From: a virus
Lineage: Duplodnaviria > Heunggongvirae > Uroviricota > Caudoviricetes
Virus record (IMG/VR): IMGVR_UViG_2529293141_000015
Location: 1,630-65,629 of that record
Length of the DNA stretch: 64,000 bases
Strand: one strand, 5' to 3'
Every line of letters begins with the position of its first letter. The first letter of the stretch is position 1. The position numbers were made by a program. Below are positions 23,301 to 29,300 of this stretch, piece after piece.

Positions 23301-26300
23301 GCAGGCAGACAAGCTGAAAGCGCGCAGGAGGGACTTACAGCCCCGCAGTTACTGGATTAAGCAGGCACAACAGGCTGTGAATGCTTATATCAGGGAGCGG
23401 GACCGTCATTTGCCGTGTGTTTCATGCGGGACGTTCGATTCAGCCCAGTGGGATGCAGGCCATTACCGTACAACAGCTGCGGCACCTCAGCTCAGATTTG
23501 ATGAACGCAATATCCATAAGCAATGCGTGGTGTGTAACCAGTACAAAAGCGGAAATCTCGTTCCGTATCGTGTCGAACTGATTAACCGCATCGGGCAGGA
23601 AGCAGTAGACGAAATCGAATCAAACCATAGTCGCCACCGCTGGACTGTCGAAGAGTGCAAGGCGATCAAGGCAGAGTATCAACAGAAACTTAAAGACCTG
23701 CGAAACAGCAGAAGTGAGGCCGCATGACGTTCACAGTAAAAACCATTCCTGACATGCTCGTTGAGGCATATGGAAATCAGACAGAGGTAGCCCGAATACT
23801 GAACTGCAATCGTGCCACAGTCAGAAAATACATTGGCGATAAAGAAGGGAAAAGACACGCTATCGTCAACGGTGTTCTTATGGTTCACCGCGGATGGGGT
23901 AAAGATACTGATGCGTGATATCCGGCAGGTTCTTGAGCGCTGGGGGGCATGGGCGGCAAATAACTATGAGGATGTTACATGGTCGCCCATTGCTGCCGGA
24001 TTTAAGGGACTGATCCCCGAAAAAGTAAAATCACGTCCACAGTGCTGTGACGATGATGCGATGGTGATATGCGGGTGCATAGCCCGCCTTTACCGGAACA
24101 ATCGCGATCTGCATGACTTGCTGGTTGATTACTACGTGTTGGGGGAGACGTTCATGGCGCTGGCACGGAAACATGGGTGCTCTGACACCTGTATAGGTAA
24201 ACGCCTTCACAAAGCGGAGGGGATTGTTGAAGGCATGCTGATGATGCTGGGAGTGAGGCTTGAGATGGATCGGTATGTTGAGCGTGAATTGCCGGGAGGG
24301 AGAACCTCTGTATTTTATCAGCGAAAAAATAGTTTACGATCGTAAAAATCTTCATATCATGATAAGAGTGGTTACATTGCCACGCTGCTTAACCCGCCGA
24401 TGCGCGGGTTTTTTGTATCCGGAATCCTGTTAGTTATACGGAAAGTACACAGAAAGGAAGGTGCGACCGCAATTAATAACAAAATCTTAAAAATCGCATA
24501 TGGCACTATTAGTTTTCTAAATATTGTATATTTTAAGTATTGCAGGATGACCCTGTAACGAAGTTTGCGTAACAGCATTTTGCTCTACGAGTTTGCCAGC
24601 CTCCCCCAGTGGCTGGCTTTTTTTGTATCCGTTCAACAGGAATGTTACATACCTCACAATTAAGTCTGTTGAATGTTGTCTGCCCGGATGAGAATTTGTT
24701 AGAAAAAAACTGCATGGTGAATCCCCCTGTGCGGAGGGGCGACTGGTGAATGGTATGATCTCTTTGATGATCGTAAGCGAGAATACGCGGGTTTGGTGGC
24801 ACCAGGCCGAACTCACCGGGAGGCACCCGGCACCATGCAGTATACAGAGATTAGGCATATATCAGGGCCCCTCATAGCAGGGGCCTTTTTACATGCAAAA
24901 AAAAGCCGCCCCGGGAAGAGCGGTTGGCAAGAAGAAAAGCAATATGAACAATTAATTAACGCTGCGAATAATACCTTACAGTAATCACCCTGCGCAACTG
25001 TGAGGAGTGTATTTCTTTTTTGCGGGTGGTTGTCTTTTTCCCTTGTGTTTCGGGACTTCCGCTCACTCCTTATCTTATTCAGTACATTATCCCGGCCGGG
25101 AGGATTCATGGCATTTAAACACTATGACGTGGTCAGGGCGGCGTCGCCGTCAGACCTTGCGGAACGAATAACTCAAAAACTGAAGGAAGGGTGGCAGCCT
25201 TATGGTAGTGCGCTGATTTCGACAGCTGGTTATGGTGCGGAGTTCATCCAGCCAGTTGTGAGTGAGGGGAGCATCTCATCACCAGAGGAGCCAGGCAACC
25301 GTCCGACGACCTCAGCGCCTTCTGTTGCGCCAGAATATTACTATGTGATCGCGCTTGCTGGTCAGTCCAATGGTATGTCATACGGTGAGGGACTGCCATT
25401 ACCGGATACATTCGACAGCCCTGATCCACGTATTAAACAGTTAGCGCGTCGCAGTACGGTGACACCGGGAGGTGCTGCATGTATCTATAACGATATTATC
25501 CCGGCAGATCACTGTCTCCATGATGTGGAGGATATGACAGGGCTTAATCATCCCAAAGCGGATTTATCGAAAGGTCAGTACGGCTGTGTGGGACAGGGGC
25601 TGCATATCGCCAAAAAGCTTCTGCCATTTATACCGGCGAATGCGGGCATTCTTCTTGTTCCGTGCTGCCGTGGTGGTTCAGCTTTCACCACCGGAACCGA
25701 TGGCACATACAGTGACACTACTGGCGCCTCAGAGAGTTCCACCCGCTGGGGGGTGGGCAGGCCGCTGTATAAGGACCTCATTGGTCGTACAAAAGCCGCG
25801 CTGGCGAAGAATCCGAAAAATGTGCTGCTTGCCGTGGTATGGATGCAGGGGGAATTTGATTTTAACGGAACGCCAGCGAATCATGCAGCCCGTTTTACAG
25901 AAGTGGTGGATCAATACCGTGCGGACCTTGCAGATATGGCGGGGCAGTGTGTGGGTGGCTCAGCTGACAGTGTTCCCTGGATTTGTGGAGACACAACATA
26001 TTTCTGGAAGCAGAAGAACGAAACGGCGTACCAGACGGTGTATGGTAGTTACAAAAATAAAACGGAAAAGAATATCCATTTCGTGCCGTTCATGACCGAT
26101 GAGAACGGGGTGAATGTGCCGACGAACAAACCGGAAGAAGACCCGGATATTCCGGATATCGGGTATTACGGTTCAAAATGGCGAACGGACAGAAGCACCT
26201 GGACATCTCAGGACAGGGCCAGTCATTTCAGTTCATGGGCTCGCCGTGGGATTATTTCCGACCGTCTGGCAACGGCGATTCTGAGCTGCGCGGGTAAGTC

Positions 26301-29300
26301 TTCTGCGTTTGTTAATGGTACTGCCGGGGTGGTTGTTCCAGACAGACCGGTTACCACCTCAGAGTCTGTAATTTTTTACGATGCCAAAAAAGCTTCAGAC
26401 AATCAGCTGAAACCTTATGGCTGGGACGGTATGGATGGCAGACGCACACTGGTTGATGACAGCGGCAATAAAGCTCTGCGAATTGAGAAAAATAACAGCG
26501 CGAAATCCTGGTCAATGTACTGTGATATTGCTGCAGACAAGGCAAAACTTTTACTGGAAAAAGGCGGGGAAATTGCTGTCCGGTTTAAAATCCCCGAAAA
26601 CGTCAATCTTGAGACAACCAGAAACAAGTATGCCTTTGGTTTGTACTGGCGAATAGCGGAATGGCCGGGTGAGGGTGGTGAAGGCTATCTGAGTTCTTTC
26701 TTTGTCCAGACAGATAAAGCCAGTATTGATGTTGCATACCATCATACAGTTAATCAACAAAAAGAACTTGGCACGTTTGGCGCATTCGACCATGACTGGC
26801 ATACGCTTGCATTTAAATTTAAGGGCAGTAACAGCATTAATGTTACTCCGGTGCTTGATGGTGTGGATGGACAGGCGTTTGACCTGGTGAAATGGGCCAA
26901 TACTGCTAATGGACTCAACAGGTTTGTCATTACGGATATTACAGGTAGTGCAGAAACCTACCCTGTACTTATTGATACGGTGGAAGTTAAAGCAAACAAA
27001 GCTGGAGCAGCCGCATAATTGCTAAAAAAAGCCGCCAGCGGCAGGAATGGAAGCTGGCGGAGGTAATCCCAATGGAGAATGTAAAGAAAAGATGCTTTCG
27101 TACATTGGTTTTTTAAATGAAAAACAGTTCTCATTGTCAACCATAACGGTAAGAAATTATGATATTTATTCATCAGGTGATGCTGTACTTCTGTACGGCG
27201 GTCTGTGTGCTGTATCTTCTTTCAGGTGGGTACAGGGCTGTGCGCGATTTCTGGTGCAGGCAGATTGATAAAAGGGCCGCTGAGAAAATCAGCGCCAGTC
27301 AGTCAGCCGGAAGCAAACCCGAAGAGCCCGTTACTCCTTAACAACCCCTTTCAGCGAGAAAATCCCATGTCAGAAATCACATCCCTGGTCACTGCAGAGG
27401 CAGTGAAGGAAGTCCTGCGCTCTGAAGAAGTCCGGAGCGCACTGAAACAGAAACTTCGCCAGAATCTTGAGGCGCGTCTTGATGCAGAAGTTGATGCCAT
27501 TCTGGATGAGCTGCTTGGTGTACAGGCAGAGCCACCGACTGAAGCGGGAGATACCACCGCAGAGAGCGGTGAAGTTCAGCCTGAATCACCGGTCGCCGAT
27601 GCGACTGAACCTCAACCCGAATCGGTCATGATGCTGTAACGGGGAGTCAGGGCCATCAGTAAACAGCTGCTGGCCTTTTTCATGTTGTGAGCTTCCGGAT
27701 TGCGGGAGACGGGGTATGTACCAGATGGAAAAAATCACAACAGGTGTGTCATACACCACGTCAGCGGTGGGAACGGGCTACTGGTTCCTGCAGTTGCTGG
27801 ACAGGGTTTCCCCGTCTCAGTGGGCGGCAATAGGCGTGCTGGGGAGTCTGCTGTTTGGGCTGCTGACATACCTGACGAACCTGTATTTCAAGATTAAAGA
27901 AGACCGGCGTAAGGCGGCGCGGGGAGAGTAAGCTGATGAGCAAACTCCGCTATGGTTTATCGGCTGCCGTTCTGGCGCTGATTGCTGCAGGTGCTTCTGC
28001 GCCTGAAATCCTCGACCAGTTTCTTGACGAAAAAGAAGGTAACCACACCACGGCATACCGTGATGGTGCGGGTATTTGGACCATCTGCCGTGGTGCCACC
28101 CAGGTGGATGGTAAGCTTGTCGTCCCCGGCATGAAGTTGTCGAAGGAAAAATGCGACCAGGTTAACGCCATTGAACGTGATAAGGCGCTGGCATGGGTGG
28201 CGAAAAACATCAGAGTGCCACTGACCGAACCTCAGAAAGCGGGGATCGCGTCATTCTGTCCTTACAACATTGGCCCCGGTAAGTGTTTCCCGTCGACGTT
28301 TTATAAACGAATTAATGCAGGCGATCGCAGGGGAGCGTGTGAAGCGATTCGCTGGTGGATTAAGGACGGTGGCAGAGACTGCCGTATCCGCTCAAATAAT
28401 TGCTACGGTCAGGTATCCCGTCGCGACCAGGAGAGTGCGCTGGCATGCTGGGGTATCGACAGGTAGCAGAATATTTTGCTGAAAAATGACGTTTGCTCAC
28501 GCGGACGGATAACACGAAATCCTGCGAACTGGCAAAATGCAAGTGAATAAAGTCAGGAAGATTGTTTCACGCTGAGGCACCGTAATGGTGTCTTTGTCAT
28601 TTCTGCGCTTCGCACAAGCGTAAATAAACCAAAGAACCTTTCAGGATGAGCCCTGGTGGATAACCGGCAGTGGTCTGGTTAACCCTCTTTGGGCTGGTTA
28701 TTCCTGTGCGCAGGGTTCATCACTAAAAGGAAATAACCGATGAATATGATGACCGTGCCGTTTCACGGCGATTCTCTTTATGTGGTTAACCATAACGGTG
28801 AGCCATACGTTCCCATGAAACCTGTCGTTGCGGGGATGGGGCTGGCCTGGCAATCACAGTTGGCTAAGTTAAGACAGCGTTTTGCGTCAACTATAACGGA
28901 AATCGTTATGGTTGCTGAGGATGGGAAACGACGCAATATGGTGTCCCTGCCACTTCGAAAACTTGCAGGCTGGTTACAAACCATCAATCCCAACAAAGTA
29001 AAACCCGAAATCCGCGACAAGGTAATCCAGTATCAGGAAGAGTGCGACGATGTTCTCTATGAATACTGGACGAAGGGGGGTGTCGTTAATCCCCGTCGAA
29101 TGAGTGTGATGGAAGAACTCAATCAGGCCTGCGCTGACATGAAACGGGATAAAAACATTGCCAGTGTGTTTGCTACCGGGCTGAATGAGTGGAAACAGGT
29201 TAAAGCCGCGCATGTATCAAAAATCCGCACATTGATAAACGAAGCGAATCTGCTGATTGATTTTGTCCTGGCTGATACAGGCAAAGGGAAAATAACAAAG

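Follow-up and report, generated by a model that had tools for sequence, protein, structure and literature searches.

Introduction

Morons of Escherichia coli prophages are inserted downstream of the late promoter pR', and convergent pairs of small RNAs (sRNAs) lie between the moron and a conserved phage open reading frame (ORF), a layout reported for Sp5, Sp15 and six other prophages of strain Sakai (Tree et al. 2014, PMC4104026). In both Sakai Shiga toxin (Stx) phages, differential RNA sequencing (dRNA-seq) and Term-seq placed pR' and the terminator tR' 258 nt apart; the terminated leader binds Hfq and is trimmed by RNase E to a 74-nt sRNA, StxS, which activates rpoS and represses stx1B in strain Sakai (Sy, Lan and Tree 2020, PMC7547250). 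StxS accompanies the class of Q antiterminators that are 144 amino acids (aa) long, is present in non-toxigenic phages too, and is dispensable for phage propagation, while functions in trans have been demonstrated for it (PMC7547250). Another sRNA gene, STnc100, is located 75 nt downstream of stx2 in Shiga toxin-producing E. coli (PMC12370729), and STnc100 is linked to PasD in a recent preprint.

Here we analyse the corresponding locus in a 64,000-nt stretch of DNA, referred to as the window, from a Caudoviricetes virus (IMG/VR record IMGVR_UViG_2529293141_000015, positions 1,630 to 65,629). A reading of the sequence alone (the sequence-only reading) had described about 760 bp between a Q-like gene and the esterase gene nanS-p, with three rho-independent terminators and neither toxin nor tRNA genes. 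The non-coding interval between Q and nanS-p measures 762 bp (24346-25107), and it is very probably the late-operon leader of a 933W-like prophage of the Stx-phage family with an empty moron slot. Judged by its alleles, the region is best read as a recombinant, in which an empty-slot junction allele was joined inside STnc100 to a right arm like that of Stx1c phages, and not as the product of a deletion in situ.

Organization of the Q to nanS-p interval

The sequence identity of all parts of the interval and their folds are observations, and the operation of the circuit is taken from homologues. The features are, from left to right:

23911-24345, + strand: Q antiterminator gene, 144 aa, Q933 type
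24333-24360, + strand: putative late promoter pR' (-35 TTTACG, 16-nt spacer, -10 TATCAT)
24367-24624, + strand: pR'-tR' leader transcript of ~258 nt, homologue of StxS-L of Sakai
24374-24381, + strand: putative Q-utilization (qut) site
24391-24414, + strand: T1, a hairpin (stem 24391-24410) followed by U6, at about +25 to +48 of the pR' transcript
24551-24624, + strand: processed StxS (StxS-S), the last 74 nt of the leader, by homology
24595-24624, + strand: T2, the intrinsic terminator tR' (stem 24595-24617, 7-bp GC stem, 9-nt loop, U7)
24625-24640, no strand: empty moron slot, 16 bp joining the tR' block and the STnc100 block
24641-24682, + strand: block upstream of STnc100, conserved in 12 copies, which may hold the STnc100 promoter
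24683-24896, + strand: STnc100 sRNA gene (Rfam RF02076), 214 nt
24709-24730, no strand: predicted recombination breakpoint, a single clean allele switch within the most conserved core of STnc100
24864-24890, + strand: T3, the STnc100 terminator (stem 24864-24887, U5)
24898-24973, - strand: candidate convergent sRNA (-10-like TATTAT at 24968-24973, hairpin at 24906-24923, U8 at 24898-24905)
25108-27018, + strand: nanS-p, 636 aa

Small ORFs within the interval, for example at 24400-24558 (+) and 24372-24578 (-), overlap these RNA elements, are without annotation by the Prokaryotic Genome Annotation Pipeline (PGAP) in relatives, and were treated as non-coding.

The empty cargo slot

Pairwise comparison places all structural differences among the relatives between 24624-24632 on the left and 24641 on the right, that is, at the 16 bp that separate the two blocks in the window. 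The content of this slot varies as follows:

Stx1c phages: 1,760 bp with stxA1c, stxB1c and a second, diverged STnc100
phi296 and TL-2011a type: 473 bp with the tRNAs ileZ-argN-argO
VT2-Sakai: tRNAs and stx2AB
KY176: ~608 bp with a DUF7661 gene and an extra STnc100
Another genome: TerB-family and DUF3927 genes inside a match whose span exceeds the query by ~1.9 kb
FORC_069-type prophages: none, collinear with the window

The absence of toxin and tRNA genes extends to the whole 64-kb window, where ARAGORN predicted no tRNA gene, tblastn with the A and B subunits of Stx1a, Stx1c and Stx2a gave chance matches only (best E 0.16), and blastn with the stx1c and stx2 cassettes, a search for remnants, returned only the STnc100-related stretch. 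The translated search that had been set beforehand as the possible refutation of a stx-negative interval was thus itself negative. The window is without the stxA and stxB genes in the late region by which a Stx-converting phage is recognized. It carries the Q-pR'-tR' and STnc100-nanS-lysis blocks as they are found in Stx1 and Stx2 phages, in agreement with the earlier proposal of a stx-free member of the Stx-phage family (933W-like, Sepvirinae).

A 126-nt probe across the junction is contiguous in 88 of 5,426 complete E. coli genomes, and all matches sampled among these are single matches of 124-126 bp. In the phage collection, no phage-isolate record holds the junction in one piece. The best junction match, E. 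coli 2012EL-2448, is 100% identical but belongs to a different prophage. That prophage (14763-20534 of compared locus L010) has a cargo made up of a hok/gef pseudogene, a YXWGXW-repeat protein, HsdM, HsdS and hypothetical proteins, which sits between a divergent Q (71% nucleotide identity) and a complete pR'-T1-StxS-tR'-STnc100-nanS block, so that pR' lies 4.5 kb from Q.

Two copies of STnc100 stand directly in tandem in the Stx1c phages (5464-5675 and 5737-5950 of compared locus L003) and in the KY176 prophage (4310-4515 and 4577-4790 of locus L005). The upstream copy travels with stx1c in the former and with DUF7661 in the latter. Phage PhiR5_2 also has two copies (3039-3232 and 3508-3717 of locus L009).

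The late promoter and leader transcript

The Q protein matches PF06530 over its whole length (E 1e-50), is 100% identical to Q of VT2-Sakai and 99.3% identical to Q of 933W, and is distantly related to the Q21 structures 6JNX and 6P18 (E 1.7e-7). Its gene is located immediately upstream of the late promoter, the order of a Q-dependent lambdoid late operon. Alignment of the interval to the Stx2 phage VT2-Sakai, a check that the sequence-only reading had proposed, showed the pR', qut site, T1 and tR' block to be homologous. The predicted pR' matches the consensus at 9/12 positions, and its position is identical to that of the "putative late promoter" annotated in AP000422 (VT2-Sakai). The qut site was placed by alignment to a feature of the same record, within a block that is invariant in 7 phages, and its function is predicted. 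The positions of both T1 and T2 carry the label "possible rho-independent terminator" in AP000422. A pR', a qut site and a tR' are therefore all present, as judged by consensus, by homology to the annotated and dRNA-seq-mapped Sakai pR', and by fold, with promoter activity predicted. In the left-block alignment, which took in VT2-Sakai, one Stx1 phage, one Stx1c prophage and three stx-free relatives, the Q-proximal 300 bp are nearly invariant, and homology among the phages stops ~10 nt past T2.

From its hexamers, pR' would start transcription near 24367, at a distance of exactly 258 nt from where the U-run of T2 ends. The leader is identical to the Stx2 and Stx1 phage alleles of Sakai at 246-247/259 positions, and StxS-S is identical to both alleles at 73/74 nt. 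The StxS sequence is thus found downstream of a 144-aa Q, and on this homology T2 is tR', at which StxS has its 3' end. Weak Rfam matches to RprA, DsrA and Qrr at 24511-24627 (+) (E 1-4, below threshold) fit the published pairing of StxS at a site in the rpoS leader that is shared with RprA and DsrA (PMC7547250).

Hairpin/U-tract folds bear out the three well-formed terminators that had been proposed on the + strand. T2 is the most stable against shuffles (-18.2 kcal/mol, z -4.7) and is kept in all comparators, T3 folds at -17.2 kcal/mol (z -3.8), and T1, whose stem is invariant in 7 phages, folds at -12.3 kcal/mol (z -1.7); all three are conserved in related phages. A consensus terminator scan of 3.7 kb, which returned 11 sites compared with 3.5 +/- 2.1 in shuffles, picked up T1 and missed T2, which has a 9-nt loop, and T3, whose stem runs into the U-tract. 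Without Q, T1 is likely to be at least partly read through, because the 258-nt RNA was mapped in Sakai, whose T1 has U7. As to an early hairpin after other PF06530-type Q genes (ev207, SfIV, cdtI, APSE-7 and a Klebsiella phage), the downstream regions there are organized otherwise, often with a bidirectional terminator and a gene on the opposite strand.

STnc100 and the opposing transcript

The third terminator belongs to an RNA gene that had not been noticed before. STnc100 at 24683-24896 scores 197.9 bits in cmscan against a gathering score of 47, and the match covers the full model (positions 1-206), which makes it a member of the family. Its minimum free energy is -83.2 kcal/mol (z -4.2 vs shuffles). 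STnc100 is found at the same place in every comparator, including Stx1, Stx2 and Stx1c phages, stx-free prophages and mEp460, and it is upstream of nanS-p where that gene is present. In mEp460 it is next to a different Q type.

The terminator scan also returned a fourth terminator beyond those in the sequence-only reading. It lies on the - strand at 24898-24923, back-to-back with T3, and the relatives preserve its hairpin in sequences of three different types. In VT2-Sakai the - strand sRNA AsxR (7741-7793 of compared locus L006) directly abuts STnc100, which is the position of the - strand terminator in the window. The candidate RNA at 24898-24973 also has the placement of the AsxR/AgvB class, antisense to and converging on a + strand sRNA just 3' of the moron slot. 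Neither AsxR (RF02703) nor AgvB (RF02702) gave a match at E up to 5 in 24200-25300, nor was the ~42-nt conserved 3' region of the class found there, and in the alignment the body and stem of the - strand RNA differ from those of AsxR in sequence. An assignment to AsxR or AgvB was rejected on the missing Rfam match and a fold that was not significant. Going by sequence and placement, the candidate is a positional analogue of AsxR only. Possibly it is an undescribed gene of the anti-sRNA type.

These assignments bear on how the three + strand terminators are to be understood. T1 to T3 could form a dedicated, redundant insulator that keeps the late genes off without Q, with the RNAs as by-products. 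Each of them is a canonical hairpin/U-tract site that precedes nanS-p and the lysis genes on the late strand, and all three must be overridden for late expression. We consider such an insulator unlikely, because the cargo slot parts T3 from T2 in most relatives, where T3 follows stx or tRNA genes and is not in tandem with tR'. T3 is moreover part of a 214-nt structured RNA family that is found beside other Q types, as in mEp460, StxS has demonstrated trans functions and is itself dispensable for phage propagation (PMC7547250), and the 258-nt product mapped in Sakai shows read-through of T1 there (PMC7547250). What stands of the terminator series proposed earlier is that the late genes, nanS-p among them, lie behind intrinsic terminators. 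What falls is the notion of a dedicated tandem series, as T2 would end StxS, T3 would end STnc100, and T1 would be a leader hairpin that is read through in part.

Mosaic origin of the locus

The similarity of the locus to its relatives changes along its length. In 100-nt windows, 23772-24571 is 99-100% KY176-like, the nearest type for 24572-24771 is the empty-slot FORC_069 type, and from 24772 to the end of nanS-p the identity to the Stx1c phages (phiSTEC1589, STEC1585) is 99-100%, with ~99.9% over the right arm. The informative sites give a sharper picture. Between 24625 and 24709, 20/22 are of the FORC_069 type and 0 of the Stx1c type, and between 24730 and 25150 all of more than 100 are of the Stx1c type. 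The switch at 24709-24730 thus separates the junction allele from the Stx1c-like arm. At the scale of the window, wrbA-type prophages are the nearest relatives of the early region (98.5% over 75% of the query), and a Stx1c phage is that of the late region (96.7% over 68% of the query).

The sequence-only reading had left a choice between a stx-negative relative and a derivative that lost its toxin cassette. On the alleles, the locus would be neither a pristine stx-negative lineage nor an in-situ deletion, and a recombinant inside STnc100 would take the place of both. Direct descent from a Stx1c phage, in which a single deletion between tR' and STnc100 took out precisely the 1.76-kb stx1c cassette, would explain why 100-nt windows from 24730 through nanS-p are 99-100% identical to phiSTEC1589 and STEC1585 and why the backbone order is the same. 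It leaves unexplained why 20/22 informative sites at 24625-24709 carry the empty-slot FORC_069 allele and none the Stx1c allele, and why the Q-tR' block is 95.5% identical to that of the Stx1c phages but 99.2% identical to that of KY176. Recombination between the two tandem STnc100 copies of the Stx1c phages would remove an sRNA copy and not stx, and the same junction is present in 88 complete genomes. Such a deletion is in our view highly improbable. Loss of stx by assembly collapse of repeated STnc100 or prophage sequence, for which one could cite the tandem STnc100 of the Stx1c phages and up to 18 related places in E. coli genomes, is hardly credible, as independent complete genomes contain the exact junction in single matches of 124-126 bp without gaps, the collinearity with FORC_069-type prophages extends over 3.6 kb, and stx lies upstream of both tandem STnc100 copies, so that a collapse would not remove it.

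The crossover, mapped to 21 bp in STnc100, and the cargo cassettes that bring their own STnc100 (stx1c, DUF7661) suggest a wider hypothesis. Perhaps the conserved sRNA genes serve as homology arms for the exchange of moron cassettes, with StxS/tR' on the left and the STnc100 core on the right, and the - strand RNA is an undescribed anti-sRNA variant with a new target. We offer this tentatively and regard it as doubtful. If true, stx would be gained and lost through recombination at sRNA genes.

Proposed operation of the late leader

By analogy with its homologues, the late leader with an empty slot would operate as follows. The promoter pR', which overlaps the end of Q, would fire constitutively. 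Without Q, its transcript would pass T1, where some of it perhaps ends, and stop at tR' to give a leader of ~258 nt, from which RNase E would produce the 74-nt StxS that binds Hfq; Hfq binding, processing and rpoS activation were shown in Sakai only. The STnc100 gene block, which begins 16 bp past tR', would be expressed as a separate small transcript that ends at T3, and a small terminator-bearing RNA from the - strand would converge on STnc100 at the AsxR position. Upon induction, Q would load onto RNA polymerase at pR' so that T1, T2 and T3 are ignored, and nanS-p, the pinholin, the SAR endolysin and Rz/Rz1 would then be transcribed. Such Q-dependent read-through into the lysis and structural genes is suggested by gene order and by the induction of nanS-p in relatives (PMC10462455); in stx2a strains nanS-p rises by 1-2.4 logs after mitomycin C (PMC10462455). 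The toxin would be absent because the phage carries the empty-slot tR'/STnc100 junction allele, joined by homologous recombination at 24709-24730 to a nanS-p arm that it has in common with Stx1c phages.

Several observations weigh against parts of this account. For this strain the circuit is predicted from sequence, and matches to the promoter consensus at 9/12 positions are no commoner in the region than in shuffles. T1, which lies a mere ~25-48 nt past the start, resembles a genuine terminator, and an efficient T1 would leave little StxS to be made; its tail is U6 in the window and U7 in the Sakai phages. As to the promoter and 5' end of STnc100, the 12 aligned copies have a conserved TC.CAATT ... 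TT..C.G and no convincing -35/-10 pair. For the - strand RNA, the z-score of the fold is not significant and Rfam gave no match. As to the direction of the recombination, the alleles fit both the loss of stx from a Stx1c-like phage and the gain of a Stx1c-like arm by a stx-free phage. Finally, a 1,251-bp element occurs twice, at 7154-8404 (+) and 49077-50327 (-), as inverted copies of 100% identity, and the prophage may therefore be disrupted and defective or prone to inversion, in which case the circuit may never be completed.

The inverted copies encode an IS3-family-like transposase and bracket ~41 kb, which includes the whole region from Q to the tail genes.

nanS-p and the lysis genes

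Pfam and structure matches upheld the backbone calls of the sequence-only reading (Q, nanS-p, P21-type holin, SAR endolysin, ant and Rz/Rz1). The genes that follow nanS-p are:

27159-27341, + strand: DUF1378 gene (Pfam)
27367-27639, + strand: DUF826 gene (Pfam)
27716-27931, + strand: P21-type holin gene (PF04971, E 7e-33)
27936-28466, + strand: SAR (signal-anchor-release)-type endolysin (lysozyme) gene (PF00959; structure match to R21, 3HDE)
28740-29309, + strand: ant (P22_AR_N)
29599-30108, + strand: Rz (Pfam)
29861-30046, + strand: Rz1 (Pfam), inside the Rz span

The nanS-p ORF starts with an ATG at 25108, not 25109. By Pfam its product carries DUF1737 (PF08410), SASA (PF03629) and DUF6645 (PF20350), labelled as the capsid-binding, esterase and lectin-like domains, respectively. 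It matches the structures of NanS (3PT5, E 5e-117) and NanS-p (6YP6, E 4e-42), and a GQSN block is visible in the translation, as expected of a prophage sialate O-acetylesterase domain. Direct reading of the translation also shows a SISSP linker motif after DUF1737, as in gp84 of phi24B. This NanS-p homologue undergoes processing and decorates the capsid, to which it attaches by way of DUF1737 (bioRxiv 10.64898/2026.04.10.717836). By this comparison nanS-p of the window is probably not a moron but a structural late gene for a capsid decoration esterase, and its retention in a stx-free phage would follow from such a structural role.

A hairpin with U7 lies on the - strand at 27025-27050, directly past the nanS-p stop (-15.2 kcal/mol, z -2.75). 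It is in the same esterase-holin spacer in which a 2026 preprint placed the sRNAs PasA and PasC. A strong-looking promoter match (10/12) is found on the + strand at 27134-27163, just ahead of the DUF1378 gene.

The alignment of the endolysin to the R21 SAR endolysin 3HDE starts at residue 11 and includes the Ala/Gly-rich N-terminus. On sequence and structure matches, the lysis module is of the phage 21 pinholin/SAR endolysin type, with membrane release predicted. Compared with the lysis region of the Stx1c phages, the stretches at 28552-29326 and 30109-30843, with the ant gene (P22_AR_N) and a rha-like gene, respectively, are inserted. Elsewhere in the window, pairs of isrK and C4 antisense RNAs were found at 3702-3884 (-) and 15096-15283 (-), above the Rfam gathering scores; these pairs are immunity/antirepressor control modules that also occur upstream of ant genes in related Stx phages.

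Comparison with known systems

The locus is a clean example of an exact empty stx slot, with 16 bp between the tR' and STnc100 blocks. A stx-free prophage can share a nanS-p arm of ~99.9% identity with Stx1c phages, which makes the two ready recombination partners for the gain and loss of the toxin. StxS would act on host rpoS even where no toxin gene is present. For annotation, the locus is a reminder that a "terminator" in the late leader of a phage is often where a regulatory RNA has its 3' end.

The late regions of 933W, VT2-Sakai (Sp5) and the Stx1 phage Sp15 have the same pR'-T1-StxS-tR' (~95% identical), a full-length STnc100, and the same order of nanS-p, DUF1378, DUF826, pinholin, SAR endolysin and Rz/Rz1. 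In contrast to them, the window is without tRNAs and stxAB between tR' and STnc100, its - strand RNA is not AsxR by sequence, and ant and rha are inserted in the lysis region. The stx-negative prophages of FORC_069, NCCP15648 and O104:H4 FDAARGOS_349 are collinear with the window over Q-tR'-STnc100-nanS and have the same empty junction; they are only 92.6% identical to it overall, and the window has a nanS-p arm of the Stx1c-phage type with a Q-tR' arm of the KY176 type. The phage phiSTEC1589-Stx1c (PQ600364) and the STEC1585 prophage share the right arm from 24730 through nanS-p and the gene order, whereas stxA1c, stxB1c and the diverged second STnc100 (1,760 bp) fill their slot and their Q-tR' block is 95.5% identical. 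A similar logic of cargo after the late antiterminator is seen in the APSE phages of Hamiltonella defensa, where a variable cargo region with toxin genes comes directly after a PF06530-type Q (44% identity). Their leader is unrelated, with no hairpin/U-tract terminator in the first 240 nt past Q, in a locus where Rfam families were not searched. In APSE-7, an aphid-symbiont phage (1195-2772 of compared locus L014), the Q homologue stands directly before the annotated toxin-cassette region (CdtB), the cargo position that stx has.

The arrangement is already known, its architecture having been described by Tree et al. (2014) and Sy et al. (2020), and it occurs here in a new mosaic genome. The one mildly new point is the breakpoint mapped precisely within STnc100, along with the cargo cassettes that have an STnc100 copy of their own; it suggests, as a hypothesis, that stx is exchanged with sRNA genes as the recombination arms.

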